Made by a program: the position numbers and the translations under genes. Positions 1,933 through 54,253 of a stretch of 54,409 bases of DNA are shown piece by piece (positions within the stretch are counted from its first letter, which is position 1; each line of letters starts with the position of its first letter). The stretch comes from a virus. Taxonomy: Duplodnaviria; Caudoviricetes. Where the stretch lies: the IMG/VR virus record IMGVR_UViG_3300033475_000030, positions 1-54,409 of that record; one strand, given 5' to 3'. The notes under the pieces were generated by a model. That model did no database searches. It saw only the letters and a program-made list of their open reading frames with translations, and was not told the DNA's origin.

Positions 1933-2060
1933 GGGTCAATCCAATCGGGAATAAAGCCCGGCGCCCTGCGGCACGCTGGCAATGATGATTTGTGGGTAGA
2001 GAGCGAATCAGCTACTGCTGCGGCGGGCCATTGCGGCCCGAGAAATACGCCAGTGAAAGA

Positions 2061-3143
2061 ATGTCGATGGAGCATACAAAGCACGGCAAAGGAAGCGGGG
2101 CGCTTTCCTATATTCCGAGGCTAAACACTTTCAGGGCATTCGCTGCATTTTCAGTCGTCTTTATTCACTATTTCTCAAATATTGTTCCAGAATATTTGAA
2201 AATAACCCCAGATGGAGTTCAGTTCTTCTTCACTCTATCCGGATTTCTTATAACCAGCACCCTGCTATCAGATAGTTGTGGCCGCTCCGTATCTTCGTCG
2301 ATATTTCGGTTCTATACGCGCCGTGTTTTTCGCATATTCCCAGCCTATTATGGCACGCTGTTGATTTGCATGATTCTCGGCCTCTATGGCGCTAGGCAAT
2401 GCTGGCCGTGGGCTGCCACATATACCGTGGACATATTCATCAGCTACGGCTTCGGAGATGCGGGGTACCTCGGTCACTTCTGGACGCTGGCGGTCGAGGA
2501 GCAATTCTACATCCTCCTGCCGATTAGCATTCTCCTGCTTCCGCGCCGTTGGTTCGTCACGCTAGCGCTGATGTCCATTGGCGGAGCCCTAATCTATCGA
2601 GGGGTGGAGTTTCCCAGGAATCCGATGTTTGGGTTCAATCCAGCCGCCAATCTTGACAAACTATCTGTCGGCGTTCTTACGGCTATCGCCGTTGAATCTC
2701 GGGGGACGGATTGGGTGGAGCGGCACCTAAGAAGGCTGCTCCCAATAACCATTCCTAGCTTCGTACTTTGCTCCTGCGGCCTACTGCTGGGAGATTATCT
2801 GAGGCGGTTCGCGTTTAGTGTCCCCACTGTTCTCACATCTCTGTTTTTTGCGTGGCTCATTGCAAAGGCAGTTAAGGACGGACCCCAAGGAAGTAGTTGG
2901 GGAGGATCCATTTTGCCCAGAATTGGAGCCATAAGCTACGGAATTTACCTATTTCACCTTCCGGTTGAGGCGGCCATCAATTATCTGGAGCAAGGAACTC
3001 CATCGGTTTTACTTAGAGTGTCTGGAATGGTTGTGACGGTTGCCTTGGCATGGATATCATACACGTTTTATGAGATGCCCCTCATAGAGCTTGGCAAATC
3101 CTTCTTGTCGCTTAGATTCCGAGCCGCTCCCGCAAGTCGTTAG
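2061..3143 (+). CDS. Acyltransferase family 3 (OafA/Oac-like membrane O-acetyltransferase) moron
   Basis: Motifs LNTFRAFAA, FFTLSGFLI, FY.RR.FRI.PAY, HFWTLAVEEQFY, G.ISYGIYLFH, SY.FYE.P; multi-TM; lower GC; opposite strand; likely start ATG 2061 or 2067. Confidence 0.9.
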   Translation: MSMEHTKHGKGSGALSYIPRLNTFRAFAAFSVVFIHYFSNIVPEYLKITPDGVQFFFTLSGFLITSTLLSDSCGRSVSSSIFRFYTRRVFRIFPAYYGTLLICMILGLYGARQCWPWAATYTVDIFISYGFGDAGYLGHFWTLAVEEQFYILLPISILLLPRRWFVTLALMSIGGALIYRGVEFPRNPMFGFNPAANLDKLSVGVLTAIAVESRGTDWVERHLRRLLPITIPSFVLCSCGLLLGDYLRRFAFSVPTVLTSLFFAWLIAKAVKDGPQGSSWGGSILPRIGAISYGIYLFHLPVEAAINYLEQGTPSVLLRVSGMVVTVALAWISYTFYEMPLIELGKSFLSLRFRAAPASR

Positions 3144-5889: not shown

Positions 5890-6710
5890 TAACTGCTCAG
5901 CGCAACCAGCGAGGTCGGCATCCAGAGAGGGCAGATCGGATCGGCGCGCTGCATCAAGTCATCGCAACGCGTGGCGTCGCCGTAGAGACGATAGGCAAGG
6001 GTTAAAGCAGGGATCGGTATTTTCGTCGTCACCATGACTAGTTTCGGGAGATCGGCGCCGCGGGCGGTCAGGTCCGTGATGACTGCAGTCCGAAGCGAAC
6101 GAAGGGACGCGTAGGCGTCATTGTCGCCGGCATCCGCCGCCACAATCATCTCCGCGTCGATCAGGTCCGCGACCTGCGTCCGCAAGCTCATCGCGTCGTC
6201 ATATGAGGTCGGCGTATAGGCGGAGCATGCGCGGGCAAGAGAAACCAGGGCCGCCCGGCGACAAACCGCCGCCGTTTCGGTCTCCACCGCAGCGATCGTC
6301 TGTCCTATCGTGGCGCTCGAAACCGGAGGCGTCGGGTAATAGTCGGATAGCGCGGTCATTAGCCTAATCTGATCCGCCGGATTTGGTGCCGCGGCACGAA
6401 GGGCTTCAGCGAGATCTACGATGGCTATCACAAGCGCCGTAGCCGTCGTCATGGATAGATCGGAAGCCGCCACCTCAGCCTCCGCGACTGTTGCGGCAAC
6501 CAGCGTCCGCGCCGTCGTTATCCCCGCCAGAATGCTTGCCGTCGTAGCTGTGGGCTGGACGGTTACGCCCGGGATGGTGACATAGCGCCCGTAGTTGCCC
6601 TGCAGGACGCTCATCGCGCCGGAGGAGATAGAGGCATCCTCGGAAAGCTGTGTCGCAAGAGCACCAAAGCCCTGGACAGCGAGGAGCGCGCCTTGCGCTA
6701 TGGCTGCCAT
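5889..6710 (-). CDS. C-terminal part of Mu N-like DNA circularisation/tail-tip protein
   Basis: Y..L..LR.AV..DL, P.LTLAYRLYGDA.R.DDL, P..PL.MP motifs. Confidence 0.75.
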   Translation of the reverse strand: MAAIAQGALLAVQGFGALATQLSEDASISSGAMSVLQGNYGRYVTIPGVTVQPTATTASILAGITTARTLVAATVAEAEVAASDLSMTTATALVIAIVDLAEALRAAAPNPADQIRLMTALSDYYPTPPVSSATIGQTIAAVETETAAVCRRAALVSLARACSAYTPTSYDDAMSLRTQVADLIDAEMIVAADAGDNDAYASLRSLRTAVITDLTARGADLPKLVMVTTKIPIPALTLAYRLYGDATRCDDLMQRADPICPLWMPTSLVALSS

Positions 6711-7201
6711 CAGAGAGCCCCGAGCGGATTGGCAATGACCCTGGAGAAGTCACTGGAGATGCTGGTCAGAGCGCTGTCAGCGGCAGAGCTGACCTGGCTA
6801 ATCGTGTTCTGGATCACACTCGGGAAAAGCTGAAGTGGAGCGCCCTCGGCGAACGTGAAGTCAATCATCACTGCGTTGCCGTGCTGGTAGGACTGGCGAA
6901 AGACCGGCTGCCCGATGAGGCTGACGCTCAGAAGTCCGAGCGTGGGATGCGTGAGCGGGCCTGCGCCCGATATCTCACACGCAATCATCATCAGATCCTG
7001 CTGCAGGTAGCAGGACTCGCCCACCAGGAAGCCCCGGAAGGTATAGTAACTCGTCGCCTTTCCGAGGTCTTCGATCCACGGCGTGTCGCGGAAGGGGTAT
7101 TCGTGCAGCGCCGTGCGCCGTCCGACGCGTGCCTCGTTGTCGAAGACGTGGAACGGTACGCCGCGCCACGACGCCGGGAGGAGATAGTCCATCCAGCTCA
7201 T
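6710..7201 (-). CDS. DNA circularisation protein N-terminal domain (Mu N-like)
   Basis: W...L.PASWRGVPF, GRR..LHEYPFRD.P..EDLG, L.HPTLG. Confidence 0.9.
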   Translation of the reverse strand: MSWMDYLLPASWRGVPFHVFDNEARVGRRTALHEYPFRDTPWIEDLGKATSYYTFRGFLVGESCYLQQDLMMIACEISGAGPLTHPTLGLLSVSLIGQPVFRQSYQHGNAVMIDFTFAEGAPLQLFPSVIQNTISQVSSAADSALTSISSDFSRVIANPLGAL

Positions 7202-7567: not shown

Positions 7568-9648
7568 GGTGCCCCAGCCGGAAGCGGGTGGTGAATCTGC
7601 AGGACGGTCACCGGCTTTTGGTTGTGGGTAGCCTTGGCGCCAGTCAGGTTGCCCTGATGATTGACGGTCAACTCCACATGCACGCGGTTTTCGGCGCCCA
7701 TGCCTGTGCCGGCTTGGGTCTCTCCGATTAGGCGCGTTGGCCCATTGTCCTGCGGGAAGGCACCCGCATTCCCGGCCGCGTCGATCTGCGGAAGGTATTT
7801 GCTGCCGTCCTTCTGGCGGGCGAGGATGGCCGCCGTATTCGCTAGGCGCCACGCCTGCTCATTCTGCCAGGCCGGGGTCCCAGGCGTCGCGGGCCGCTCA
7901 TAGCTAAGCGCCGCATCGGTTGCTTGGTCTGCGGTATTGGCGGCGAGCAGCTTCTTCCCGGCTGCGCCCTCCTTGCCGTTGAACATCTCGTCCAGGGCGA
8001 ACTGCATTTGCTCTTGCAGCGTGCTCTTGCGGATGTCGTGGCCGAACTGCTGGGCGAAATCGGCTTGGCGGGCTTTCCCCCACTGACCGATGCCGTAGTG
8101 GCCGCCGCCTTGGTCATTACTCGCGGTCGGGTCGAGCCCGCTTTCCTGCTGGAAACCGCCGACCAGAGCTGCTGCCTGAACGGCGGACAGCCCCTGGCTG
8201 CGGTAATAGGCCACCATGTCATCGGCTCGCGCGGCCTGCGCGGCCTTGGATGCCTTGTGGGCCTCATAGCCGCCGTAGGCCGCGCCGAGAGCGCCGCCGA
8301 TACCGGCGCCGACCGGACCGAAGATCGCGCCGCCAGCGATAGCGCCAGCGGTGGCATCTCCAAGAACAGTGGCGGTCGTTTGCCCAGCCCCCATCGACTC
8401 AGCGGCCATCTTAACAATTTGGTCGCCAACCACGGCAAACCCAATCGCGCCAAGTGCGCGGCCGAGAGCCCCGAAGGAGGCCGGCCCGCTCGTCAGGCCA
8501 GCGATTGCCGCCGCAAGTTGCACGAATGGCACCGCGATCGAGGCCACCTTAGCCGCCGTCAGGATCGCGATCACGCCAACGATAGCCGTTTTCCAACCAC
8601 CGATGGACTGCACCACCGCATTGATCTTGTCGAAGACATCCTGAATTTTCTTCCAGACGGCAGTCCAATCAACCTTTTGAATAGAAGTGGCAATATCAGA
8701 GACGATCTTGCCAACATTCTGGCCAATCAGCTCGCGGTTTTTGTCGACCCACTTCGAGAAGCTGTCGATCATCGGCTTGAGAACAGGCTCAAGCTTACTT
8801 GAGATCGCCGTTGCGAGCCCTTCAAGGCTCTGCTGCATTCCATTGAGCGACTGCGCCAGGCTATCGCCTGTGCCGATTTGATTGTCAGTCGGACTGCCGT
8901 GAGCCGCGGCCTTTTTTAGGTTCTCTTGCAGTGCAGCCGGCCCGCGAAGAAGCTCGGACATGAAGCCATCGGAGAAGCCGAAGGTGCCCTCGATATTGCC
9001 GATCGCGTTCGCGCGCGCCGGGCCGCGCAACTTCTGGAGATAGGCGCTAATCTTGGTGATGGTGCCGGGAAGATCCTGGCTCTGCTTCTGCCAATCCTTA
9101 CCCAGGATCATCTGGAGCATGCCGGCGGCCTGATTGTTTTGGCCGAAACGAGCATCCGTCGCCGTGCGCTGAAGGCCACGCAGGGAGGAATCTGTTTCTC
9201 CCGCGGAAACACCCACCAACCGTCCGGCGCGCTCCCACTGCGCGAGCTTAGCCGGGTCCATGTTCATCACGCGGCCGGTATTGGTCAGCGTCTGTCCAAG
9301 ATCGGCAAAACGTCGCTCAAGCGCGACGATGCCTGCGATCGTAGCCGCCCCCGTGATGATGCCGAGCGGGTCAACTATGCGGGAGATATTCTGGAAGGCT
9401 CCCCATGAGGAGCGCGTCAGCTCCATGAAGCCTTTGGAGACGCGTTGCACGCCCATGGCGAGCTTATTGCCACCCAGCAGGCGCACCGTGCGCCCGATCT
9501 GTGTTCCCAGGCGCTTCCAGGGCGCCGCAGATGCCGCCAGACGCTTGTTGATAGCATTCTGGGCGCCAGCGATTTTGCCATTGATCTTGTCGATCGTAGC
9601 GGTCGTTTGATCGACCGCCTTGATTGTAATGGAGAAACCGGAGGCCAT
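7564..9648 (-). CDS. Tape measure protein with C-terminal phage-tail lysozyme domain
   Basis: F.ITI.AVD.T N-terminus, Ala/Gly helical body; GLS..QAAA.VG..QQESGL.P...GIGQW..RQ lysozyme-like motif. Confidence 0.88.
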   Translation of the reverse strand: MASGFSITIKAVDQTTATIDKINGKIAGAQNAINKRLAASAAPWKRLGTQIGRTVRLLGGNKLAMGVQRVSKGFMELTRSSWGAFQNISRIVDPLGIITGAATIAGIVALERRFADLGQTLTNTGRVMNMDPAKLAQWERAGRLVGVSAGETDSSLRGLQRTATDARFGQNNQAAGMLQMILGKDWQKQSQDLPGTITKISAYLQKLRGPARANAIGNIEGTFGFSDGFMSELLRGPAALQENLKKAAAHGSPTDNQIGTGDSLAQSLNGMQQSLEGLATAISSKLEPVLKPMIDSFSKWVDKNRELIGQNVGKIVSDIATSIQKVDWTAVWKKIQDVFDKINAVVQSIGGWKTAIVGVIAILTAAKVASIAVPFVQLAAAIAGLTSGPASFGALGRALGAIGFAVVGDQIVKMAAESMGAGQTTATVLGDATAGAIAGGAIFGPVGAGIGGALGAAYGGYEAHKASKAAQAARADDMVAYYRSQGLSAVQAAALVGGFQQESGLDPTASNDQGGGHYGIGQWGKARQADFAQQFGHDIRKSTLQEQMQFALDEMFNGKEGAAGKKLLAANTADQATDAALSYERPATPGTPAWQNEQAWRLANTAAILARQKDGSKYLPQIDAAGNAGAFPQDNGPTRLIGETQAGTGMGAENRVHVELTVNHQGNLTGAKATHNQKPVTVLQIHHPLPAGAP

Positions 9649-9657
9649 GGCGCCCTC

Positions 9658-10794
9658 TTACTGCGTCGGGGTCTGGGCGCCCGTCGTATTCTGACCGGCA
9701 GCGGCAAGTGTTTCGTTATCGAACGTGTACGGAACAGCCGGCTGCGGGATGAAAGCGGCCGGTGGCATTAGCGTCACGTCGGCCCGGGTGCCTTGTCCGT
9801 CTCGGATATAGGTCACGGTCGAGATCAGCCATGTGCCGGATACCTTGCAGCTTGGGATCGTGATGTCCGCAAGAAAATTTGGTGTCCAAAGCTTGCCAGC
9901 ACTATCGCGCCAGCTATCAACGGTGATCGTGACGGCCTGGCTGCGGCCGATACGGCGGGCCATCTCCCACTGCACACGCTGCGGCACCAGATTGTTCTGG
10001 TTCTGCCCCTGCTCCGCGAGGATCAGGAGTGGGCGGTAGCGCGGCTTGCCATCAGCCCGGACGGGGAAACTCTTGTCGACGGCCAGGGACTTGTCATTGA
10101 CATAAGGAAGGGGAGAAACGTCCGTTCCTTGGCTCAGGATAGTCGTGTCGAGCCAGATCGCGGCAATGGAGGTAAACCGCTCGGAGACATTCAGCGTAGA
10201 CTGAACGGCCTGGACGTTGACGCCTTCCTGAAACCCGCTCGCATGCTTTTGCGTGCCGACCTTCGCGATGACCAGATTTCCATCCGTATCATCGTAGAGA
10301 AGGCGTGCATTCCAGCGTGCCACACGCTCTAGCGTTTCATAGCCGGTCTCGGTCAAGAGAACGGAGATGGAAGGGATCGTGGGCGTGTCGCCATCGGGGA
10401 GCGAGACGGTGATTCCGAGCGGCGAGCAGAGTAGATTGCCTAGAGCGCCGAGCGTGCGGCCAACCGACTGCTGTTGCGCCAAGGCTCCGGAGCAATCGAC
10501 CAGATCCTCTAGCTTTGACCGACCAACAACGGTGATTTCGTGGGAGGTTGCGGACAGCTCATAGTCTCGGCCATCGACATAGCCCGTCAGAACGGTGTCG
10601 CTGCCAAGGGCAATCCGGCAGGGCGACCCCGGCAGGATATCCACCTTATTCACGCCGGAGGCGCCGGGGTATTTCTCCGTGCCGATCAGGGAAAAACTGG
10701 ACGGAACCGCTTCGATGCTGCGGGTAATTTGCACACCCTCCCAGCCCTGCCAGGAGATGTCGCCGACGATGATAGAAACGGGGTCATTCGTCAT
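9658..10794 (-). CDS. Baseplate hub protein (Mu gpP/gp44-like)
   Basis: GWEGV.ITRSIE, VLTGYVD, GRSK..DLVDCS, WE..RR.GRS, WRDS.G.LW.PN; ATG 10794 overlaps the upstream TGA. Confidence 0.9.
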   Translation of the reverse strand: MTNDPVSIIVGDISWQGWEGVQITRSIEAVPSSFSLIGTEKYPGASGVNKVDILPGSPCRIALGSDTVLTGYVDGRDYELSATSHEITVVGRSKLEDLVDCSGALAQQQSVGRTLGALGNLLCSPLGITVSLPDGDTPTIPSISVLLTETGYETLERVARWNARLLYDDTDGNLVIAKVGTQKHASGFQEGVNVQAVQSTLNVSERFTSIAAIWLDTTILSQGTDVSPLPYVNDKSLAVDKSFPVRADGKPRYRPLLILAEQGQNQNNLVPQRVQWEMARRIGRSQAVTITVDSWRDSAGKLWTPNFLADITIPSCKVSGTWLISTVTYIRDGQGTRADVTLMPPAAFIPQPAVPYTFDNETLAAAGQNTTGAQTPTQ

Positions 10795-20171: not shown

Positions 20172-22205
20172 TCACGCCCCAGGCAGGCGACCAGCGAGGC
20201 CACTCCTACGCCTCACGGGCTGTGCCGTATGGATCGTTGGACCACGCGGCGTGTGCGCTTGCGCCGCTGCTGGCGTGTAGACAGGCCCCTGAATAACGGG
20301 CGCGGCCATTGGAGCGGGCTCGGCGCGGGCTGCAACGTACGGCTTCGCGACCGCCTCAGCCCTCTGGTTCAACTTCAGGCCCATATGGAGGAGGCCGCAC
20401 AACGCAGCATAGGAATAAACAGCGAGGTCGAGCGCTTCGTTTGCCCTGCCCGCCGCCAGTTCCCACACGCGGAATCTCTGACCGTTAACCGCCTTCGTCA
20501 CCAGCCGCTCGGAAATGAGCTGCGCGAAGAAGTTGATGTCTCGATCAGACGGGTAATGCATGTAGCCCGGCGATGGTTCATCAGCGCCCGGCTGCTCTTG
20601 GGCGAGGCGAGACCGGATGATATCCTTCGCCGCATTTACCCCGATGATTACCGGGCGAAATGCCTGCTTGTTCCGTGCACTTGGCTTTTTGGTGGGCCAC
20701 ACTGGCGACCGAATGCCGCCACGCGCAGACTCACCCTTCACCGCCCAAATGCGACGCCCCAGCCGGGCCTTGCAGAACTCATAGACCTTCTGTGTGTGAT
20801 GGCCGCCCGAATCAATGCAGGCCGCCGCAATCTCAAATTCTCTGCCGTCAGCACGACGCCATTTGCGCTTCAAGTAGGCGTCGACCTGAGCCCATAGGGA
20901 TGGACTGTCGGGGTCTCCTTCGATCACTTCATGGGCAATCGACCAACGCTCTTCGTTGGCGCCCCATCCGGCAATCTCTATCTCGACGCGATCGTCCTGA
21001 ACGTCGCCGCTCGCAGTCAGAACGGCTACCCTGCTAGGGACTTCTCCGGCCCAGACCTCGGTGCGAGCAACCAAGAGACGCTCGCTCAGCGCTTTGTCGC
21101 CGCGGTCCTCGTAAGGCTCGCCGAGCACGAGGTTGATGAAGGTCTGCCGCCTTAGAGGGTCGTCCTTCACCTCAAGCCACTCGGCCGCCAGGTTCGCCCA
21201 GGATGCGTTCACATGCAGGCTGTAGCCGGCCCAGATATGGAACCCGGCATGGCCATTGAACGGCTTAGCAGCGCGCCACTCGCCAGCCGAGATCATCTCG
21301 GGCTTGTCGGCCTCTTCGATGATGCATCCATTGGCGCGGCAGGCGTAGAAGGCAGTCTCTGGCTGGTGGCGCCCCTGTTCATCTTTGCGCCACTTGATGC
21401 CGTGAGGCGTATCCCGTCCGCCCCACTCTAGGTACTGCATTTCCCCGCAGTGCGGGCACGGGACGTAATATCTGCGCTGGTCGCTCTGCTCCCAGCTTTT
21501 TTCAATCCGGCTCAAGCCCTTCACCGTGGGGGTGCTGCCGAGCACGATCTTGCGATTCCAAAAGGTCTCGGTACGCTTGATGCCGAGGGCAATTTGGTCG
21601 CCCTCCGATCCAGCGCCCCCAGACGGGTAGCCATCGACCTCATCGAACAGGGCGACGCGGACGGTAATGCGCCGGAAGCCGCCCGGGCTATTAGCTCCGA
21701 CCAGGGTTAGGCTGGAGCCATTCAGGAGCGTCTTCTTGAGGATGGTCTGACTGCCATCCTTGGCCTTCGGGTCGCCCGCAATCTGCGCCAGGACCGGCAC
21801 GTCGCGCAGCATCGGCGCGATCTCGGTCTTGCTGTAGTCCTCGGCATCCTCCACGCGAGGCTGCACGACCAGAATTGGCGACGGGTCCTGATGAAGGAAA
21901 TACCCGATCGTATGGTCAAGAACCTTCGTGTAGCCGACGCGGGCGCCCTTCATCACCGTGATTGTCGTCACGGCGGGGTCGGTGATGGCATCCATCATGC
22001 CGACCTGATAGGCGTAGGCTCGAAAGCGACCGGTCTGCGCGCTGGTTTCCGGCGATAGGACCGCATAGCGGTCTGCCCACTGGCTTAGGGTCAGCTTAGG
22101 GGGCGGCTTTAGGTTCTGGTGTCGGGCTTCGTTCAGGCTGGCTAGGAGCGCCCTGTAGCCCCGTTCATAGCGCCGCGTCTCAGTCGACGGCGCTGTCTCC
22201 GTCAC
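20172..22205 (-). CDS. Terminase large subunit (lambda gpA family)
   Basis: LSQWAD, KGARVGYT, LFDEVDGYP, STPT, Y.PCPHCG, DVQ.DR.E, IDSGG, NEALD. Confidence 0.97.
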   Translation of the reverse strand: MTETAPSTETRRYERGYRALLASLNEARHQNLKPPPKLTLSQWADRYAVLSPETSAQTGRFRAYAYQVGMMDAITDPAVTTITVMKGARVGYTKVLDHTIGYFLHQDPSPILVVQPRVEDAEDYSKTEIAPMLRDVPVLAQIAGDPKAKDGSQTILKKTLLNGSSLTLVGANSPGGFRRITVRVALFDEVDGYPSGGAGSEGDQIALGIKRTETFWNRKIVLGSTPTVKGLSRIEKSWEQSDQRRYYVPCPHCGEMQYLEWGGRDTPHGIKWRKDEQGRHQPETAFYACRANGCIIEEADKPEMISAGEWRAAKPFNGHAGFHIWAGYSLHVNASWANLAAEWLEVKDDPLRRQTFINLVLGEPYEDRGDKALSERLLVARTEVWAGEVPSRVAVLTASGDVQDDRVEIEIAGWGANEERWSIAHEVIEGDPDSPSLWAQVDAYLKRKWRRADGREFEIAAACIDSGGHHTQKVYEFCKARLGRRIWAVKGESARGGIRSPVWPTKKPSARNKQAFRPVIIGVNAAKDIIRSRLAQEQPGADEPSPGYMHYPSDRDINFFAQLISERLVTKAVNGQRFRVWELAAGRANEALDLAVYSYAALCGLLHMGLKLNQRAEAVAKPYVAARAEPAPMAAPVIQGPVYTPAAAQAHTPRGPTIHTAQPVRRRSGLAGRLPGA

Positions 22206-22755
22206 GGGTCAATTCCTCTAGCGCCTCGACAATGATGGCCTGTAAAGCATCCTGCATCTCCGCAGCCGTCTTCAGGCGATGAAGGCGGGGGGTTTGTTCT
22301 GCTGGGATCGCCAGGAGGCGCGTCCGAACCTTCGCGTATTCTTGGCCAACAGCGCGAGCGACTTCGGTAACAGAGACAACCTGCCCCGACTTTTGGTCGT
22401 ATTCGAGCTGGCGCAGGAGCGCGAGGAAGTTCTCCTTGATTCGCTCGGCCTCAAGCAAATCGTAGGGCGCGCCGCTCTGCGCGATGATGCGCTCAGCCGC
22501 CTGCGACGGACTCTCGTGATCGGCTGCGGGCGGTGCGGACACGTCGCGTTGTGCGGACACTGGGGCGCGGACGCTTGGCGACTTAGCTGCGCGAGGTCGC
22601 ACAGATTTGCGCCAGTCAGTTCCGACCAACGCCGGGTCCAGGGTTCCGTCAGAAAGCTTGGCAAGCCGCCCGCTTTCGATGCCGCGGCGCACTTGCTTGT
22701 CGTCTAGGCCAGACCGCTTGGCGAACTCGCGAATGGATATGCCGGCTGCGGACAA
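22180..22755 (-). CDS. Terminase small subunit (Nu1-like)
   Basis: N-terminal wHTH SIREFA...V.R.I..GRL; A.LR.LEY....G..V; R.RLL.IP. Confidence 0.88.
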   Translation of the reverse strand: MSAAGISIREFAKRSGLDDKQVRRGIESGRLAKLSDGTLDPALVGTDWRKSVRPRAAKSPSVRAPVSAQRDVSAPPAADHESPSQAAERIIAQSGAPYDLLEAERIKENFLALLRQLEYDQKSGQVVSVTEVARAVGQEYAKVRTRLLAIPAEQTPRLHRLKTAAEMQDALQAIIVEALEELTRDGDSAVD

Positions 22756-22784
22756 CTTTTAATGGCCTATGTCTAGGGATACAT

Positions 22785-22829
22785 CGCGGTGCGAATGACC
22801 CGTGATGCAAGACCCTCCAAGGAGGACCC
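22785..22829 (-). other. cos site (cosQ plus cosN); predicted 12-nt end GGTCATTCGCAC
   Basis: GGGTCCT (identical to lambda cosQ), 22 nt ending ACG, a 12-mer, then CGCG, as in lambda ACG-GGGCGGCGACCT-CGCG; just upstream of terS. Confidence 0.75.
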
Positions 22830-22932
22830 AAAATCGCATAGCTCGGCCAATATCCATGCTCCATGTGCATGGATGGGCACCTCAGAGTCAAATCGACCGA
22901 GATGCACCCTCAGAATCGCTCTCGATGAACGC

Positions 22933-23649
22933 TCATCTCGCCGTTGCGAGCGCCTTCACCATTGCGGCTTCGAAGTTCCGGTTGAAGTTCCGGCCGACCG
23001 ATGCCGTCACTACACCGTAGAAATCCCACTTCGGATTGTAGGTAGCCTTTGGATCGAATGCGATCAGGCGACGCAGCTTGTGACCGGGCAGCCGCTGGAA
23101 GAACCCACCAGGACCACCAGCGGGGCCACGCCCGCTCATCTTGAAGACGCCCGTATTGGCGGCAACCAACTTCGGTCTGCGAACGCCCTTGATCTTGGGC
23201 ATTCCCTTGGCGGCATTCACTGCGACGCGCCGGGCGGCCTCGGCCTTAGCTTGGTTTGTCAGCCTTGCAAGGAAGCCGGGTTTGAGTGGATCTTTGCCAG
23301 ATCCAGGCAGGACTAGCGCTCGGGCTTGGATGCGGGTGTTGTCCGCTCCCGTTCTCGTTCCACCAAGGATCTCGAACTGCAGATATTTCTCTTGCTGCGG
23401 CCTGAGCCCGATTGTGACTCTTTGGCTGGCCTTCGTCGCCATCTGCCCAGGCAGCACGAATACAGCATTGCGCGTGAACGCATTGGCGCGGGTGAAGATG
23501 CGCGCCGCGGATTGGTTTGCGTCCTGCACTGCCTGCTTGGCGGTAGCATTCAGCCCCATTGCCGTGGCGAAAGCTACTTGCTTCGGCGCCTCGGTTTTGA
23601 GGTATTTTTGGATCTGCCTGGTATCGACCTTGATTGCGAGTCCGGTCAC
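22933..23649 (-). CDS. Basic virion morphogenesis/tail-completion-like protein
   Basis: KQV.FATA..LN.TA...F.R...FT, YL..EI.GG.R, Y.P.WDF, F..A...A..TAR; a family typically found upstream of terS. Confidence 0.55.
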   Translation of the reverse strand: MTGLAIKVDTRQIQKYLKTEAPKQVAFATAMGLNATAKQAVQDANQSAARIFTRANAFTRNAVFVLPGQMATKASQRVTIGLRPQQEKYLQFEILGGTRTGADNTRIQARALVLPGSGKDPLKPGFLARLTNQAKAEAARRVAVNAAKGMPKIKGVRRPKLVAANTGVFKMSGRGPAGGPGGFFQRLPGHKLRRLIAFDPKATYNPKWDFYGVVTASVGRNFNRNFEAAMVKALATAR

Positions 23650-23653
23650 CAGT

Positions 23654-24583
23654 CTATTCCGGCAGATAGTTGCTAGAGCTGTCGTCGGGACGAACGTGCG
23701 TGTAGCGCGTCGTGGTGGTGAGCGACGCGTGGCCTAGCGACTGCTGCACAACGTGGATGGGCGCGCCATGGTCCAGAGCATGACTCGCGTGCGAGTGCCG
23801 GAGCCAATGGGCGGACGCTTTGTGCGACAGGCCAGCCCGAGCCGCAGCGGCTTTGACGATATTGTGGATCTGCGACTGAAACAGAGGGCCGCCCTGTCGG
23901 GACCGGAAGATCGGATCGTCCGGCCCGGCATCGCCCTTCAGGGCTAGGAGCTGCTTCCACAGCTTGAGCGGCACTAGAACGAAACGGGTCTTGCCACCCT
24001 TTCCAAAGACGGTGATCTGGCCACCCTTGCGAGTGCCCTTAGTGTCGCGCCAGGCGAGGGTGCAGACTTCAGCGCGCCTGAGCCCGCAGCTATAAACCAC
24101 GCGAAGCAGAACGTGATTGCGCGGGTTCGGCTCCAGGCTCAGCATGCGCTGGACCTCAGCCTCTTCGAGAATGCGCTCGGCGAGCGTTTCCTTCAGAGCT
24201 GGGAGTCGAACGGGTCGACCGACGTCGAAGGACAGATAGCCGATACGATGAGCGAACCCGAGAAGACTTTTGACCGCTGCCAGCTTTCGGCGACGGGTGG
24301 CCGGCGCCAACGATGCTAGGGACTCATCCCACTGCTGAACGTCGCCAAGCGACACCTGAGCGAGCGTCTTGCCGGTCGAAAATAGGAACGTCGACACGTC
24401 AGCGCGGTAGGCTTGGACAGTCAATGTCGACCGTCCGTGAAGCCAAAGGCGGATGCAATCTTCGTCGTTATTCTTAACATCTGAAATCAGCGCCGGGGCG
24501 AGGTTATCGCCGACCTGGGCGTTGGCCGTCAGAAGCACGTCAGAACCTATGTGAATTTCTTGAGTTATGCTGGCCATTTCCAC
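23654..24583 (-). CDS. Xer-like tyrosine recombinase (second recombinase)
   Basis: Complete catalytic set YSCGLR, GKGGK, H.LRH, LGH, TTRY; SAM-like N-terminus WLHGRS..T..AYR.DV; no arm-binding domain; true start may be somewhat downstream. Confidence 0.92.
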   Translation of the reverse strand: MEMASITQEIHIGSDVLLTANAQVGDNLAPALISDVKNNDEDCIRLWLHGRSTLTVQAYRADVSTFLFSTGKTLAQVSLGDVQQWDESLASLAPATRRRKLAAVKSLLGFAHRIGYLSFDVGRPVRLPALKETLAERILEEAEVQRMLSLEPNPRNHVLLRVVYSCGLRRAEVCTLAWRDTKGTRKGGQITVFGKGGKTRFVLVPLKLWKQLLALKGDAGPDDPIFRSRQGGPLFQSQIHNIVKAAAARAGLSHKASAHWLRHSHASHALDHGAPIHVVQQSLGHASLTTTTRYTHVRPDDSSSNYLPE

Positions 24584-24612
24584 CCTTTCGAGGGCGGTTT
24601 GACCACCATTTC

Positions 24613-24642
24613 AGTTGGACATAACGGCACTTATGTGCAACT
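24613..24642. other. dif-like recombination site
   Basis: AGTTGGACATAA-CGGCAC-TTATGTGCAACT: 12-bp arms (1 mismatch), 6-bp spacer, CATAA/TTATG inner motif as in E. coli dif. Confidence 0.8.
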
Positions 24643-24674
24643 CGCTAGGCCCTGAATGGGCATTGTGGGCGTGG

Positions 24675-24872
24675 TTATTGTCCAACTCGTGGATGCACGC
24701 GAGTGCCTACGCCGGCACCGAGAAAATCCATCACGCTGATGAAGTCGCGCTCAAGTTGATCCGGGTCATCCCGAAGTCTCACCTCAAGCGATCGTCTCGC
24801 GGCGATTGGGGCAATGCGGGAAGGCGGAACGGCCTGCAGAATCTCATCAATGATGGAAGTGCTTGACATCAC
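24675..24872 (-). CDS. Hypothetical protein
   Basis: Translationally coupled to the upstream ORF. Confidence 0.5.
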   Translation of the reverse strand: MMSSTSIIDEILQAVPPSRIAPIAARRSLEVRLRDDPDQLERDFISVMDFLGAGVGTRVHPRVGQ

Positions 24873-25129
24873 AGCCTCACGCCGCGCTCGTTCCTGCTCT
24901 CAACCTGAGCAACCCTTCGGCGCACCGCGCTTGGGTCGAGATCGGCGAGCAAGCACCAATCATCGAACGATTGCGCCCACTCACCATGCCGGATTGTCAG
25001 GAAGAGCTTTGCCTCTCGGCGTTCCCTTGGATTGGCGCCGCGCTCAAATGCATCCCAGAACGCTCTAGCCAAGACGGCCTGCGCTAGAGTGCGCACGTCG
25101 GAAGCATTCAGGCCGCGATCAGGAAGCAT
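24869..25129 (-). CDS. Phage hypothetical protein
   Basis: AV..RA..DA...EA..FL...F..WC.LA.LDP..VR helical pattern; coupled overlaps. Confidence 0.65.
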   Translation of the reverse strand: MLPDRGLNASDVRTLAQAVLARAFWDAFERGANPRERREAKLFLTIRHGEWAQSFDDWCLLADLDPSAVRRRVAQVESRNERGVRL

Positions 25130-25538
25130 GAATTGCGCCGCGACGTTTGCCCGAACGCATCATCATCTGCGCAGCCTCAGCGAATTCTTGGAGGACTTCG
25201 GCAGATACTTTTTCGAATTGGCTTTCGATACGCACGGTGGTCATCGCCCGTTGATGAGCGCCCCCGATGCGGACCATAAGACCTATCGGGCATTCGCCGG
25301 CCTGTTCGACGAAATCTTCCCAGCGCTCTGGACGGCCGGCCCGCACAACGGGATGCCGAAGTCGGATGCCAGTTCCCGCTCGCTGCTCGATTGTGGAGAT
25401 CGCAACGTCCCCACCGCGCTCGTTCTCGGAATCGGCTACTATTGGAAAGACGATGACAGGACCTTCGTCTTCGACGACCCACACAACAGCCTGAAGCTTG
25501 TTCCGCTCAACAACGGAACCCCGCTTAAGTCGGGCCAT
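25119..25538 (-). CDS. Hypothetical protein, possible degenerate PemK/MazF-like fold
   Basis: First ORF after the late promoter and terminator; KRGSVV, VIVFPIV, G...LM.RI pattern. Confidence 0.45.
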   Translation of the reverse strand: MARLKRGSVVERNKLQAVVWVVEDEGPVIVFPIVADSENERGGDVAISTIEQRAGTGIRLRHPVVRAGRPERWEDFVEQAGECPIGLMVRIGGAHQRAMTTVRIESQFEKVSAEVLQEFAEAAQMMMRSGKRRGAIHAS

Positions 25539-25561
25539 GCACCACCGATTTCTGAGGTATG

Positions 25562-25596
25562 AAAAGCAAAAACCCGCTGCGCATTCCTGCGGCGGG
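25562..25596 (-). terminator. tR'-like intrinsic terminator
   Basis: CCCGCCGC-N8-GCAGCGGG (1 mismatch) followed by TTTTTGCTTTT. Confidence 0.65.
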
Positions 25597-25608
25597 ATCA
25601 TGCCATAG

Positions 25609-25637
25609 TCCATACGCGAAACAGGGGGTATGCGCAA
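25609..25637 (-). promoter_or_regulatory. Putative late promoter (pR'-like)
   Basis: TTGCGC-N17-TATGGA directly after the DUF6362-like gene. Confidence 0.5.
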
Positions 25638-25648
25638 AGGCTAAATGG

Positions 25649-26155
25649 TTAAATTTCCTCCATTTTATCTAGGATCATCAAAATACCTCGTTCATGGGCG
25701 CGTTTTACCTGTTCGGCAGCCGTCCGAGACCTATCCCCGATAGCATGCAGCCCATAGGACATCGCCAGGCGCGTCCAGCCCCATAGGTGCGGGTCCCTGC
25801 TATCGGTTAGGGGGATCGTCTCGGGCGGCCTCACCAGCGCGCGCCGGAGCACGATTTTGCGGATAGTCGGGAACCGATCGGAGATGAGCGACACCCAGGA
25901 GAACGCCGCATCCATCTCGGTGATCTCGTGAGCCTGAGGGGCTGCCGGGCGAAGGGATGCTTCGTTGTAGCCGTATGCCTCGGCGACATCACGCACGTAG
26001 GACGGCCAAGCCGCCTTGAGCGGAGCAGGGAAGATGCGCTCGGACGGAAGGCGCAGAAGTGTCGTGCCCGCGCGCTCTAGCGCGGCGATAACATCTTCGC
26101 TGGTACTGATGCCTTCAACTTCGGCAATTCGTCGCTTGAGTGCGGATCGGGCCAT
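25649..26155 (-). CDS. DUF6362-like putative late regulator (Q position)
   Basis: LE.AG.TLL.LP, WP.Y...EAYGY, P.A.EIT.MD.A..W..LI, R.IV..R; C-terminal HTH-like region. Confidence 0.7.
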   Translation of the reverse strand: MARSALKRRIAEVEGISTSEDVIAALERAGTTLLRLPSERIFPAPLKAAWPSYVRDVAEAYGYNEASLRPAAPQAHEITEMDAAFSWVSLISDRFPTIRKIVLRRALVRPPETIPLTDSRDPHLWGWTRLAMSYGLHAIGDRSRTAAEQVKRAHERGILMILDKMEEI

Positions 26156-36636: not shown

Positions 36637-36905
36637 ATACCAAGCGCGCGGCGGTACACATCCAACAGCGTTTCACGCTCTTCGACGTCGGCTGGTTCCA
36701 TACGGCGAATGCGGATGAGCTGCCGCAGCACAGCCACGTCGAATCCCGCGGACTTACCTTCCGTATAGATGTCCTTGATATCGCTTCCGAGTGCCTTGCG
36801 TTCCTCCTCAAGCCTCTCGATTCGCTCCACAATGGACCGCAGACGATCTGCTGCGATATTGCCCTGGGCTGCCGCATCACCGGAATTATGTCCAAGCTCG
36901 CTCAT
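36633..36905 (-). CDS. gapR: GapR/DUF2312 nucleoid protein homologue
   Basis: GHNS, LRS.VERIERLEEE.K....DIKD.Y.E.K..GFD...LR..IR.R, L..Y..ALGM. Confidence 0.9.
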   Translation of the reverse strand: MSELGHNSGDAAAQGNIAADRLRSIVERIERLEEERKALGSDIKDIYTEGKSAGFDVAVLRQLIRIRRMEPADVEERETLLDVYRRALGM

Positions 36906-44283: not shown

Positions 44284-47200
44284 ATGACCCACACCCCCGC
44301 CATCCGCGCCGACCTGGAGGCCGCCACCCGCTGGCTGGACATCGCGCGGACCCTGGGCGTCGCGGAAGATGACCCGCTGGTGGCCGAGGCGATGGAGCGG
44401 ATCGAGCGGGATCGGGAGATGTTGGCAAAGGAAGGATGGAACTGATGTCGTATCATGGAAACTTGCCCGACAACTTCTCCCAGGCTGCCTTCGATGCTTA
44501 CTGGGGCAAGCCGACTTCAGGTGCGGTCGAAGATGCGCTGGCGGCCGAACTCGAAATCCAGGACATGCGTGAGCAGTTGGTCACCAAGATCAAGGCCCGC
44601 AAGTCCGGCCTCGGACTCGACATCAACGAAGACATGCTGGGCGCACTCGAAGACGGTGCACGCAGCTCGAAATGGTTGCAGGAGCATCTGATCGAGCAGG
44701 AAGCGGAAGCCGCCGAGGACGCGAAGGCCGACGCGCAGGCGGCGCGGTATGACGCGCGGCGGGATGAGGAAGTGTTCGGGAGGGCGTGGTGATGTCTCTT
44801 TGGTGGCTGGAACCTGGATGGGCCGACGCACGATGCGCATGCGGCGCAAGGATCGCTCCCGAGGGTGATCCTGACTGGGGCGCGTGCTTTCATTGTTTCT
44901 CAGCGCAATTGCAAGCTAGCCAAATGGAAGAAGACCATCGGCGCGCAGTTGAAGATCCCCACTCCGCCCTCCACGACCGGCAGGACGATGCTGGGGGAGG
45001 GGAGTGATGGAAAAGATATCAGCGTGGGTCTACGACCCGACAAAGAGCCTTTTCGGTGACAAGAGCGGGAATGCAGCCCTCTACGAAATCTCGTGCCAGA
45101 ATCCGCAGGGATGCGATCTCTACACGAAGAACAACTCGTGCATCCTGTCCGGATCCCTATCTGGCTGCAAGTTTGGCCGTAAGTGTTGCACGAACGGCCC
45201 GACCAAAAGGGCCCGTGGTTTTCATTCGTGGATGAGCGACCGCCGGAAAGAGAATTCCGAATGGATCGGCAATCTTGACAGCAACACGGCATACAACCGG
45301 ATCTTCAAAATACAAGATCACTACTACCTGCCGTATTCATTTATGGCGGAAGAATATAAAGACTGCGGTAACCCGCTCCCAAGTAAGTGGGTCAATATGA
45401 ACGACATGACCGCCGACCTGCTTGAGCGGATTTGCAACGCTAGGCCTCGCGCTCTTTTTGGCGGCGTCATCTCTGGTTATCAGACCGAGCAAGTTCCAAA
45501 GTTTCTGACCGACCTGCGCATGTTCTATCCGGGTCTGTTCGACCTTTTACCCGAAGATCAAAAGGCGCGCGCTCGGTCCCTAAGCAATGTTGGCCGTCTG
45601 GCTGACATCACGACATGCCTTCCTGGCCCCTATGTTTTTTCAAGAGATAAATGGGATTGGGATGGCCAGAAATTGACTGGCCGATCGATGCTCTTCCAGC
45701 CGGTCAAAGGCGAGATCGAAATCACCATTGTCCCGGAAAAGGGACAGGGCGTGAAAATAACGGATGATGCCCAAGTCGGACCAGAAACCATGTTCTTGGA
45801 CTAAACCACACCCCCAGCCCGCGCCCGGCGCGAGAGGATCGAATGACACAAGATATTCAGGTTCCGAGCACCGTCTCCGGACATTGGCAAACGCCACAGG
45901 GCCACGAGGTTGCGAAGGATTATGTCAAGCTAAGTCGACAGCAGCTTTACTGCGGAGCAGTCCCAGACTTCGAATTGGCCACCATGGTCTATATGGCAGA
46001 CCGAAACAGCTTTGAACTCATCGGCATGCAGACCGCCGCGAGAGAGCGCATTCGTTGGCTCTCCGTGCAACTGGCTCTTAAGAGCGCCGCCCTCGAAGCC
46101 GCGCTCGGAGGGAAGTGATGTGAGCCTAGAAGTGTGGGGTGACGGTGACGACGGTGACGCCTCGTTCACTGATGATCGCGTCGAGGAAATTGGCAAAGGC
46201 GCCTTCGTTCTCGGCGTCCAAGCGTGCAGGGAAATGATGGCCCGGTTTGTTGAGCAGGGCGGCGATGCCGTTACCGCAGCCTCCATCCGCGCCAACTGGA
46301 ATCCGGCATGGGGGGAAGACCCTGGCAAGATCACCGACGTTGAATACGACGACATTATGGGAGGCTTCGATGTCTGGACGCTCTGACACTGCAACACTTC
46401 CGGCGCTAGCCAAGGCTATGAGCGCCAGCGATCTGCGCGCCTGGGAAGTCCATCTTGAAAAGATGGTCGGGACATCGAAAGCGCAAGTGAATATCAGCTT
46501 CGGTGGCCGCTATCGCGAAGCCGCATACTGCTATGTGACCATCGAGCCTACAGGCGAATACAAGCATGCCTCGAATGGCAAGGTTGACGGAGCCGATTTG
46601 GAAGCCGCCATCCTCGCCGCCCAGACCTGGATCGCGAACCGCCCCAAGGTCGAGCGCAACGCCGTCATTCGCAAGTTGGCTTTGGCAGTGATCGAATGCA
46701 CCGATGAACACGGCAAATGCACGGTCGCGATGCTGCGGGCCAAGGGCTTCGACGCAGACGAGATCGCGCTGCATGCCGAGTCGTGCGTGCGGGCCGGAGA
46801 GATGGCGAATTGCGCTCCGTTCACGGTCGAAGGTGCGCCATGACCCCCGTCACCAAAGCCGCGCTCGCAGCTGCCGCACTCATCGCCGGGTATGCCGCCG
46901 CCGTGCAGTTCGACGGCGCCTTACTGAACTCAGCCGCGCAGCAGATCGCGGGGGATTATCGGCCGATGACGCCGCCAGCGAGCTGGGTGGAGGGAATGAA
47001 GCAGTGAGCGTCATAGAAATTACGATCTCGGAAGAGATGATCGCGACTGTCTTCGATGAATGGCAGAAGGCAAATCCCCTCCGCTCTCTCGATGACATGA
47101 CCGACGATGAGTTCTCTAGCCGCATGATGGAAAAGATCAAACAGACCGCAAGGTTTGTTGAACCCCCGGAGGTGACGACATGACCTCGACATTCCGCGAC

Positions 47201-53075: not shown

Positions 53076-53343
53076 GGACCGTTGGCTCACCCGAGATGAG
53101 GTGGCCGCCTATATCAAAAAGCGCGTGGACTACCTGCCCCGTCTCCAGAAGGCAGGGAAGCTGCCGAAGCCGTCCTACCTTTTCGGGCCGAAGTCACCGC
53201 TCTGGGATCGCCATTTGATCGATCTGGCACTCAGTGGCAACGTCTCCACCGAGGTGGATGGGATCGTGGAGGGGATTGCAGATGAAATCCGGGCAGGAAG
53301 CCTTAAAGGTCGTCACAAGAACACTCGCGGACGGCACCCGTAA
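53068..53343 (+). CDS. xis: Excisionase-like HTH protein
   Basis: RWLTR.E.AAYI ... G.LP.P ... WDR..ID; overlaps the int start. Confidence 0.8.
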   Translation: MAEDRWLTRDEVAAYIKKRVDYLPRLQKAGKLPKPSYLFGPKSPLWDRHLIDLALSGNVSTEVDGIVEGIADEIRAGSLKGRHKNTRGRHP

Positions 53344-54253
53344 AACCTATTCCTACGAGAAGAAGGAGAAGCGCCCCCGGATCGGGCGCTATCCTCCCGG
53401 CAGCATCGGGGCACTGACCGTAGCATACCGAGGAAGCCCTGAGTTCCTGCGTCTCCAGCCGGCGACCAAGAAGAATTACCTCCTGTATCTCAGCTTCCTC
53501 GAACGCATGCAGATGACGGCAGCAGCCGATATCCGGCGCCGGAACATCATCACCCTTAGAAATTCCATAGCCGTGGCGAGAGGACCGGCGGCCGGAAACT
53601 GCTTCACCATGGTGACCAGCGTCCTATTCTCCTGGGCGCGGGAGAACGGCTACATGGACACGTCGCCTGTCGAGCGCATCCGCAAGCTGGAGGGCGGCCA
53701 TTACCCGGCCTGGACCAATGCCCAGGCGCAGGAGGCGATTGCCGGGCTGCCCGAGGCCCTGCGCCGGGTGGTGGTACTGGGGATGCTCACCGGCCAGCGT
53801 CGCGGCGACCTGATCCGTATGACCTGGAACAATTACGATGGCGCGACCCTGCGCCTGACACAGGCCAAGACCGGCATGAAGGTGGTGATCCCGGTTGACG
53901 CAGAGCTAAAGGCCGAGCTCGACGCATGGGTTCTGGCGAAGGTCTCCCCGCTGATCCTCACGACGCCGGGCGGCCGGCCATGGGATGGCTGCTACCTCTC
54001 AAAGGAACTCAGCCTGGCCCTCCAATCTCTCGGGCTGCCGAAGGGCCTCAACGTCCACGGGCTCAGGAAGCTGCGCGCCGCGAACCTCGCCGAGGCCGGA
54101 TGCAGCACGCACGAGATCGCAGCGCATACGGGCCACAAGACGCTCTCGATGGTGCAATTATACACTCAGTCCGTATCCCGCGAGAGGCTTGCCGAGACCG
54201 CCGTTTTGAAGATGGAAAAGGCCTCTAGGAAAACGCGAGAAAACGCTCCGTAA
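53282..54253 (+). CDS. int: Phage integrase (tyrosine recombinase)
   Basis: N-terminal arm-binding beta domain LADG.R.TY.Y; TGQR.GD, Q.KT, HGLRK, GH.T..M...Y. Confidence 0.95.
   Translation: MKSGQEALKVVTRTLADGTRKTYSYEKKEKRPRIGRYPPGSIGALTVAYRGSPEFLRLQPATKKNYLLYLSFLERMQMTAAADIRRRNIITLRNSIAVARGPAAGNCFTMVTSVLFSWARENGYMDTSPVERIRKLEGGHYPAWTNAQAQEAIAGLPEALRRVVVLGMLTGQRRGDLIRMTWNNYDGATLRLTQAKTGMKVVIPVDAELKAELDAWVLAKVSPLILTTPGGRPWDGCYLSKELSLALQSLGLPKGLNVHGLRKLRAANLAEAGCSTHEIAAHTGHKTLSMVQLYTQSVSRERLAETAVLKMEKASRKTRENAP

Follow-up and report, generated by a model that had tools for sequence, protein, structure and literature searches.

An Xer-like recombinase gene and its inverted-repeat core site

We analyzed the complete virus record IMGVR_UViG_3300033475_000030, a 54,409-base stretch of DNA (hereafter the window) whose gene layout is that of a temperate phage, and report on an Xer-like tyrosine recombinase gene, the inverted-repeat core site just upstream of it, and an accessory copy of the core arm:

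23654–24583, minus strand: Xer-like tyrosine recombinase gene, an open reading frame (ORF) of 309 amino acids from the GTG at 24583 or of 307 amino acids from the ATG at 24577
24613–24642, unstranded: core site AGTTGGACATAA-CGGCAC-TTATGTGCAACT, a 12-6-12 inverted repeat with 11 of 12 arm positions complementary
24675–24689, unstranded: accessory arm copy TTATTGTCCAACTCG, a core arm with a 1-nucleotide insertion

The ATG is the probable start, as the corresponding methionine (M3 of the longer form) is nearly invariant in an alignment with 24 homologues. In line with the first-pass annotation, which described a catalytically complete tyrosine recombinase lacking an arm-binding domain, Pfam detects a Phage_integrase domain at residues 139–298 (E 5.8e-29, 101.5 bits against a cut-off of 27.1) and a Phage_int_SAM_1 domain at residues 50–113, and no further domain in the 309 residues, so that the protein consists of SAM-like and catalytic modules only. 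All 25 aligned sequences share R169, K195, H259, R262, H285, and Y294, and these residues align with the GLRVSE, GKGNKER, HVLRH, LGH, and YTHV motifs of Escherichia coli XerD (chain 1a0p). With a score above the cut-off and the full R-K-H-R-H-Y set, the protein belongs to the tyrosine recombinase superfamily (PF00589), and the invariance of the catalytic residues points to an active enzyme instead of a protein that only binds DNA.

Assignment to a named Xer family is not supported, as the NCBIfam Xer models all score below half to two-thirds of their cut-offs: 157.9 bits against 335.15 for XerC (TIGR02224), 147 against 220 for XerA (NF040815, the second-best NCBIfam match), 142.5 against 329.6 for XerD (TIGR02225), and 38.8 against 267 for XerS (NF003462). 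The integron integrase model (TIGR02249) reaches 91.7 bits against a cut-off of 265, with its best-scoring stretch confined to the last 65 residues. Structurally characterized matches include XerD (1a0p, E 1.6e-24), XerA (5hxy, E 9e-19), and an XerH structure (E 2.1e-12), and no Cre chain is found among the nine Protein Data Bank sequences matched at E values up to 1e-5.

Read in the orientation of the gene, the core site is AGTTGCACATAA-GTGCCG-TTATGTCCAACT, with inverted arms flanking a nonpalindromic 6-bp spacer, and ends 35 bp ahead of the recombinase start at 24577. It is the sole 12-6-12 repeat with at least 11 of 12 complementary positions in the whole window; such a repeat nevertheless arises in 26 of 200 mononucleotide shuffles of the window, so that the repeat taken alone is not significant and it is the comparison across homologues that settles the matter. 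The accessory arm (GAGTTGGACAATAA in gene orientation) lies in direct orientation with the gene-distal core arm, and its extra nucleotide falls between the outer arm part and the inner TAA (GGACA-A-TAA versus GGACATAA); it overlaps the stop codon of the upstream ORF at 24675–24872. Both the site and the third arm lie exactly where the annotation had placed them. A second full site is absent from the window, the partial matches at 36875–36897 and 45920–45931 both falling within coding sequence, and we thus rejected the presence of a partner site for inversion or deletion within the window.

Conservation and co-variation of the site

Homologues were collected with an alignment-based scan of IMG/VR, a single-protein scan having returned nothing, in which 222 of 266 pattern hits encode a relative, and from species-representative genomes, where 560 of 601 do. 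The best 80 of each were kept as loci and four plasmid loci were added, and the site counts cover the 162 loci whose upstream sequence is 150 bp or longer. Many of these are near-identical prophages and the loci are therefore not independent, for which reason counts are given per distinct site type where relevant. A strict site was defined as TAA-N6-TTA, complementary at 7 or more of the 11 arm positions and no more than 300 bp upstream of the match. The comparison set consisted of 586 control windows, equal in size and drawn from these loci. By this definition a site precedes the recombinase in 79 of the 162 loci and occurs in none of the controls, and relaxed criteria yield 101 of 162 loci against 4 of 586 controls.

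The recognition sequences amount to 58 distinct arm pairs and 70 distinct sites around a family consensus arm of approximately AYGCAAGATAA. A palindromic spacer is found in none of the 70 sites, and every site is consequently polar. The closest cultured phages, Acetobacter phage phiAP1 and Komagataeibacter phage phiKM1, encode the homologue (51–54% identity) upstream of their packaging genes, with an 11-6-11 repeat before the gene and a further arm copy upstream, and their arms differ (CCGCAAGATAA in phiAP1 versus GGGACATAA in phiKM1). In the Acetobacteraceae phages in general, all arms of one locus share a specificity class, GTCAGATAA, GCAAGATAA, or GGGAGATAA. Arms thus diverge between lineages while staying matched within each locus, the core site and its accessory arms being conserved and co-varying, and the self-contained recombinase/site pair proposed in the first-pass annotation is sustained both by this matching and by the enrichment of the site upstream of homologues.

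Two copies of the module with different arms, CCGTCAGATAA and CCGCAAGATAA, are present in a single IMG/VR record of 79,715 bases (loci L031 and L068). Such diverged arms would stop co-resident prophages from recombining with each other.

The arms outside the core follow a recurrent layout. In the Acetobacteraceae phages the stretch that runs from the upstream gene's stop codon to the recombinase start contains five arms, in the order distal inverted pair, single direct arm, and core, and the distal left arm is a core arm with one added nucleotide (GTCA-T-GATAA, GCAA-T-GATAA, or GGGA-T-GATAA depending on the specificity class). Arms carrying a 1-nucleotide insertion recur in three other specificity classes of these phages, and other lineages feature two or three direct ACAATAAGT-type copies ahead of the core. 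When copies without insertion were counted at 8 of 9 matched positions, extra arms were found within 160 bp upstream of the core in 18 of the 58 site types; the downstream count is 5 of 58, and far controls give 11 of 210.

The partner of the site

Phages with identical arms carry differing spacers, up to five of them for the arm pair CCGTCAGATAA/TTATCTGACGG. As strand exchange needs matching spacers, a chromosomal target shared by such phages is excluded. The exact site occurs once per genome in all three host genomes carrying such prophages; when two mismatches are allowed, matches are found at three places in the genome richest in them (G001), against three for a reversed control pattern, and at two places in another (G002), against none. 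With a dif motif we also located a single-copy sequence common to two Acetobacter genomes (~1481–1536 of both L169 and L171), ...GCATAA-GATATA-TTATGCCAACA..., which is a plausible chromosomal dif of Acetobacter and in which both arms and spacer differ from those of the phage sites. Phage phiAP1 itself integrates at a tRNA-Ser gene through its other integrase (PMC8566455), and the main text of that report mentions neither Xer nor a second integrase.

Taken together, the spacer variation, the uniqueness of the exact site, and the differing candidate dif indicate that the partner of the site is another copy of the same element. Integration at host dif, which the annotation had offered as one possible function, is not supported by these comparisons.

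Genomic context, distribution, and mobility

Of 83 loci from viral records, 80 extend at least 3 kb downstream of the recombinase. The large terminase gene terL follows it on its own strand in 59 of the 83, at a median distance of 2.3 kb; it is never upstream and is on the opposite strand in two. Six terminase types are represented, namely PHROG 9, 2, 979, 3717, and 38 (12 of 21 representative loci) and the GpA type, and the expectation that the module stays ahead of the packaging genes is upheld in these records. The recombinase is often followed by a DUF3164 gene, as well as by HNH, ParB-like nuclease, or methyltransferase genes. The DUF3164 gene (PHROG 846), absent from the window, stands directly after the recombinase in locus L001 at 8815–9447, in L002 at 9076–9681, in L005 at 5983–6621, and in L024 at 5953–6585.

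A second integrase-family gene is not a rule of the family. The annotation had stressed that this phage carries a recombinase in addition to its integrase, which holds for the window and for phiAP1, but of ten viral records searched for integrase-family genes four carry a second one and six the recombinase only, one of these six being rated complete and one having terminal repeats. The latter (L084), in which the repeats are direct and the recombinase is immediately followed by a plasmid-type replication initiator (PHROG 16167, 6063–7100), looks like a phage-plasmid.

Plasmids and species-representative genomes harbor the family as well. The best 25 plasmid matches share 45–56% identity and come mostly from Methylobacteriaceae and cyanobacteria. 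In pCMU02 parA and two small genes precede the recombinase gene, and ACGCAAGACAA-GAATCG-TTATCTTGCGT lies about 15 bp ahead of it; two cyanobacterial plasmids carry inverted repeats with 5- or 7-nucleotide centers, and one Methylobacterium plasmid, with IS elements upstream of the gene, shows no inverted-repeat site. We scanned the neighborhoods of 12 genome loci with Pfam and found one prophage with a DUF6362 gene upstream, as in the window, and one locus, an Armatimonadota contig, with parA-parB downstream of the recombinase. All five planctomycete loci (L095, L099, L108, L111, and L134) have a RuvB-like AAA ATPase gene about 0.7 kb upstream, two of them an ArdC-like gene, and one a DUF932 gene, a neighborhood that looks like a conserved mobile-element backbone. 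In three further loci, from Bacteroidota (L094), Ardenticatenaceae (L103), and Chloroflexia (L165), the recombinase sits among metabolic genes, with a perfect ATGCAACATAA-N6-TTATGTTGCAT site in L094 and L165; these loci might represent either a single-Xer system of the chromosome or a small island.

In a tree of 144 distinct sequences two halves can be told apart, with weak support for the deep branches. The half holding the window comprises 59 rows, of which 43 have terL downstream; the other contains the plasmid, cyanobacterial, and planctomycete groups along with four scattered phage rows. The phage copies thus seem to form a large lineage of their own, so that of the scenario named in advance as refuting, a sporadic insertion derived from plasmids, the occurrence of the family on plasmids holds true and its sporadic nature does not.

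All-against-all comparison of the loci shows that homology between relatives starts 90–126 bp before the core center in four lineages, at the left edge of the site cluster and just after the stop codon of the upstream gene, and reveals no homology end point between −64 and +100 of that center. A 1.85–2.0 kb block comprising the sites, the recombinase, and DUF3164 is 92–98% identical between phages that otherwise differ, as exemplified by L020, which matches phiKM1 (L002, HK97-type terminase), and L021, which has a GpA-type terminase. The module therefore moves as a unit, and these alignments give no sign that the core itself serves as the crossover point for its exchange.

A model for the recombinase module

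We propose, with somewhat better than even confidence, that the recombinase and its site constitute a self-contained single-recombinase site-specific module, whose likeliest role is monomer/multimer control of circular phage DNA and chiefly the resolution of multimers. The comparisons show a catalytically complete gene and a conserved, polar, co-varying site whose partner can only be a further copy of the element; binding, the cleavage positions, and the direction of the reaction, as well as any autoregulation and the benefit to the phage, are what we infer, the mechanism being drawn from the chemistry of the family. One protomer would bind each 11–12-bp core arm, and two cores would pair as a tetramer, whether they lie on separate phage genome copies or within one multimer. 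Tyr294 would then cleave on either side of the 6-bp spacer and strands would be exchanged via a Holliday junction. Polarity would be given by the asymmetric spacer, such that directly repeated sites on a circular multimer would recombine to free monomers. By analogy with the DR1-DR2 motifs of TnpI from Tn4430, the extra arm copy probably holds a further, non-cutting protomer that biases the reaction toward resolution.

Several observations are in keeping with resolution of multimers. Plasmid relatives lie beside parA or parAB, where multimer resolution is most plausibly their function, and L084 combines the recombinase with a plasmid-type initiator. Spacer differences among phages with identical arms are also to be expected if each element recombines only with its own copies. 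Other points weigh against the proposal. Cos-type packaging generally needs multimers, and resolution just before packaging is thus not obviously useful; nor would plasmid-style resolution explain the conserved place ahead of the terminase genes in 59 of 83 viral loci. There is no indication of a long-lived episome either, since the phage has an integrase and there are no partition genes among the window ORFs scanned. The 83 of 162 loci without a strict site include some with variant inner motifs, such as ATTA-N6-TAAT, and others in which none is visible, and accessory arms pass the 8-of-9 threshold in only 18 of the 58 site types. Finally, we found no experiment on any family member in the literature.

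Alternative functions

The conserved position ahead of the packaging genes keeps alive the possibility that the enzyme makes the packaging substrate, by fusing monomer circles into multimers that give the cos terminase two cos sites in cis or by shuttling DNA between circles and concatemers in time with packaging. Both the prevalence of same-strand downstream terL, across six terminase types, and the separate lineage of the phage copies in the tree speak for it, and in phage lambda recombination yields circular dimers, which can be packaged if replication by the rolling-circle mode fails. We nevertheless consider it distinctly unlikely: the place may simply be a permissive early/late boundary that also accommodates methylases, HNH, and ParB-like nucleases, any phage gene would be expected to point along its operon, plasmid copies of the module exist without a packaging context, and direct-repeat accessory arms are a hallmark of resolution-biased systems (PMC2847244). 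Exchange or docking, whereby related phages would swap modules or cointegrate with plasmids carrying matching sites, is a highly unlikely function even though the 92–98% identical block is shared by otherwise different phages, homology starts at the left edge of the site cluster in four lineages, and plasmid and viral sites can be nearly identical, as in pCMU02 and L060. The absence of a homology end point at the core, the position of the left junction at the upstream gene's stop codon, which is what ordinary phage mosaicism produces, and the differing spacers, which would block recombination between relatives, all count against it.

The chances are slim that the site is the attP of a second integration system directed at host dif or another chromosomal target. 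Its inner motif and 11-6-11 layout are dif-like, elements that integrate at dif are known (PMC5357621), and six of ten viral records carry no other integrase-family gene, only one of these six being rated complete. The site is however intact, internal, and beside the gene in the window and in all prophage loci examined, instead of being split at prophage ends; a shared chromosomal target would forbid differing spacers between identical arms; no second copy of the site is present in three of three host genomes, and the candidate Acetobacter dif differs; and phiAP1 relies on its other integrase at tRNA-Ser (PMC8566455). Equally slim is the prospect that the repeat is a transcription element (an operator, a roadblock, or an RNA hairpin or terminator between early and late genes) and the protein chiefly a regulator. 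The site cluster does fill the whole interval from the upstream stop codon to the start of the recombinase, and in the Acetobacter/Gluconobacter phages the core is followed by TTTTT and scored as intrinsic-terminator-like (L024, 4970–5007; L039, 4902–4937), so that it may double there as an early/late transcription barrier. Among the 58 site types, however, only 5 have a T run after the site, 2 have one on the other strand, and in the window there is none, on which grounds we rejected a terminator hairpin as the general explanation; a hairpin also leaves the conserved TAA-N6-TTA, the 6-bp spacing, and the single direct arms unexplained, and the catalytic residues are invariant. A promoter beside the site was likewise rejected, with none predicted in the window or in L039 and a single weak match in L024, upstream of the core; the autorepression that the annotation read from the position of the site is accordingly a weak possibility. 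By eye, TTGAGG-N16/17-TAATAT-like hexamers follow the core in Acetobacter-type loci; the scan did not score them and we make no claim about them.

Three further identities were tried and rejected. Protelomerases of the TelN/TelK type are much longer than the 309-residue recombinase, and none of the 70 sites has a palindromic spacer. An integron-like attI with cassettes is contradicted by the integrase model, which scores far below its cut-off, and by the lack of repeated sites upstream in the window. A lambda-type integrase would have an N-terminal arm-binding domain, absent here, and distinct arm-type sites, whereas the accessory sites in this module are copies of the core arm.

Other features of the window

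The remaining gene layout is as follows:

53234–54253, plus strand: canonical integrase (PF00589, E 2.5e-13), separate from the Xer-like recombinase
48–50 kb: RecT-type early-left genes
42.5 kb: repressor-like gene
32–38 kb, minus strand: replication genes, encoding a single-stranded DNA-binding protein (SSB), an initiator, a DnaB-like helicase, a RuvC-like resolvase, and a methyltransferase
~36640–36905, minus strand: small ORF between the RuvC-like and methyltransferase genes, by eye presumably a GapR/DUF2312-type DNA-binding protein
between the replication genes and the recombinase: small genes of unknown function
after the recombinase and ahead of the small terminase gene terS: gene for a 238-residue protein (PHROG 1924)
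22180–22755: terS
20172–22205: terL, GpA-type
from there to position 1: head genes and Mu-like tail and baseplate genes
1992–3143, plus strand: Acyl_transf_3 gene, on the opposite strand among the tail genes

The Acyl_transf_3 gene is a candidate lysogenic-conversion moron that could acylate surface polysaccharide. Of the separate int/xis pair listed in the first-pass annotation, the integrase was recovered and the excisionase was not located, the small ORFs before int giving no Pfam match above cut-off. Its placement of the module after a late promoter and close to cos fared less well: no sigma-70-like promoter is predicted in 22700–25700, and the measurable distance is not to a confirmed cos position but to the terS start at 22755, 1.86 kb from the core site. 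Two soil metatranscriptome runs contain short contigs that match parts of 22700–26000 at 99% identity or more, including 23465–23955 inside the recombinase gene; they are no evidence of expression, as DNA carry-over is possible and the contigs show no transcript ends.

Implications

The module is not described in the literature that we searched, whose coverage left out subscription journals, and the family to which it belongs is large, uncharacterized, and spread across phages and plasmids of several phyla. As a rule, second phage "integrases" receive an annotation and no further attention. If our reading of the enzyme is right, it raises the question of why integrating, cos-packaging phages manage genome multimers just before packaging, and its relatives, with at least 58 natural arm specificities, would be candidate orthogonal recombination tools. 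We also put forward, as a tentative possibility on the unlikely side, that the phage members are a phage-adapted single-Xer lineage coupled to packaging, in which the enzyme, encoded by the last gene ahead of the packaging block, converts replication products to a terminase-ready form, either circular multimers or unit circles, and whose matched sites on plasmids allow cointegrates. Were that the case, the lytic cycle of a large temperate phage group would regularly include site-specific recombination, and dozens of natural, mutually orthogonal Cre/lox-like pairs would be at hand.

Comparison with known systems

Its best sequence matches and the 11-6-11 layout with inner ATAA/TTAT liken the module to XerC/XerD-dif. 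That system is chromosomal and employs two paralogous enzymes on two different arms, whereas here one enzyme and near-identical arms are carried by a mobile element. With Cre/loxP of phage P1 it shares a phage-borne single recombinase and a simple inverted-repeat site near the gene, on which the enzyme would act between genome copies. Cre serves in plasmid dimer resolution and in cyclization, and loxP has a 13-8-13 layout. P1 is, however, a plasmid prophage, whereas the present phage has an integrase and accessory arm copies.

With one enzyme and a site beside its gene, the locus qualifies as a single-recombinase module and in this respect resembles XerS/difSL of streptococci and lactococci and XerH/difH of Helicobacter and Campylobacter, where one recombinase and a near-symmetric site beside its own gene likewise form one module. 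In those systems the site adjoins the gene, one arm of difSL and of difH contains an extra nucleotide, and large plasmids carry their own recombinase next to its site (PMC5357621). The extra nucleotide recalls the accessory arms described here. XerS and XerH nonetheless act in FtsK-dependent chromosomal dimer resolution and have about 355 residues, compared with 307–309 for the present protein, and the center of difSL spans 11 bp instead of 6 bp. Occurring as it does on phages and plasmids, with the metabolic-context loci L094, L103, and L165 apart, the module does not qualify as a host-chromosome dimer-resolution system. Archaeal XerA is a single Xer acting on a 28-bp dif independently of FtsK (PMC5357621); it differs in being chromosomal and archaeal, and the score of the present protein lies under the XerA cut-off.

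The multi-arm layout has a parallel in TnpI/IRS, in which an inverted-motif core and tandem accessory motifs are bound by the same recombinase, cuts are staggered by 6 bp, and the accessory motifs impose resolution selectivity (PMC2847244). Compared by layout, the two are alike in that accessory motifs share the recognition sequence of the core. TnpI/IRS differs in resolving transposon cointegrates in Bacillus, whereas the accessory arms here bear a 1-nucleotide insertion and, in the Acetobacteraceae phages, include a second inverted pair; the one accessory arm of the window and the three further arms of those phages may correspond to the accessory motifs of a TnpI/IRS-type site. By analogy, the module may work like XerS/difSL, XerH/difH, XerA/dif, Cre/loxP, and TnpI/IRS, and we regard its family as widespread, uncharacterized, and single-Xer, with multi-arm sites and including a phage-adapted lineage tied to the packaging region.

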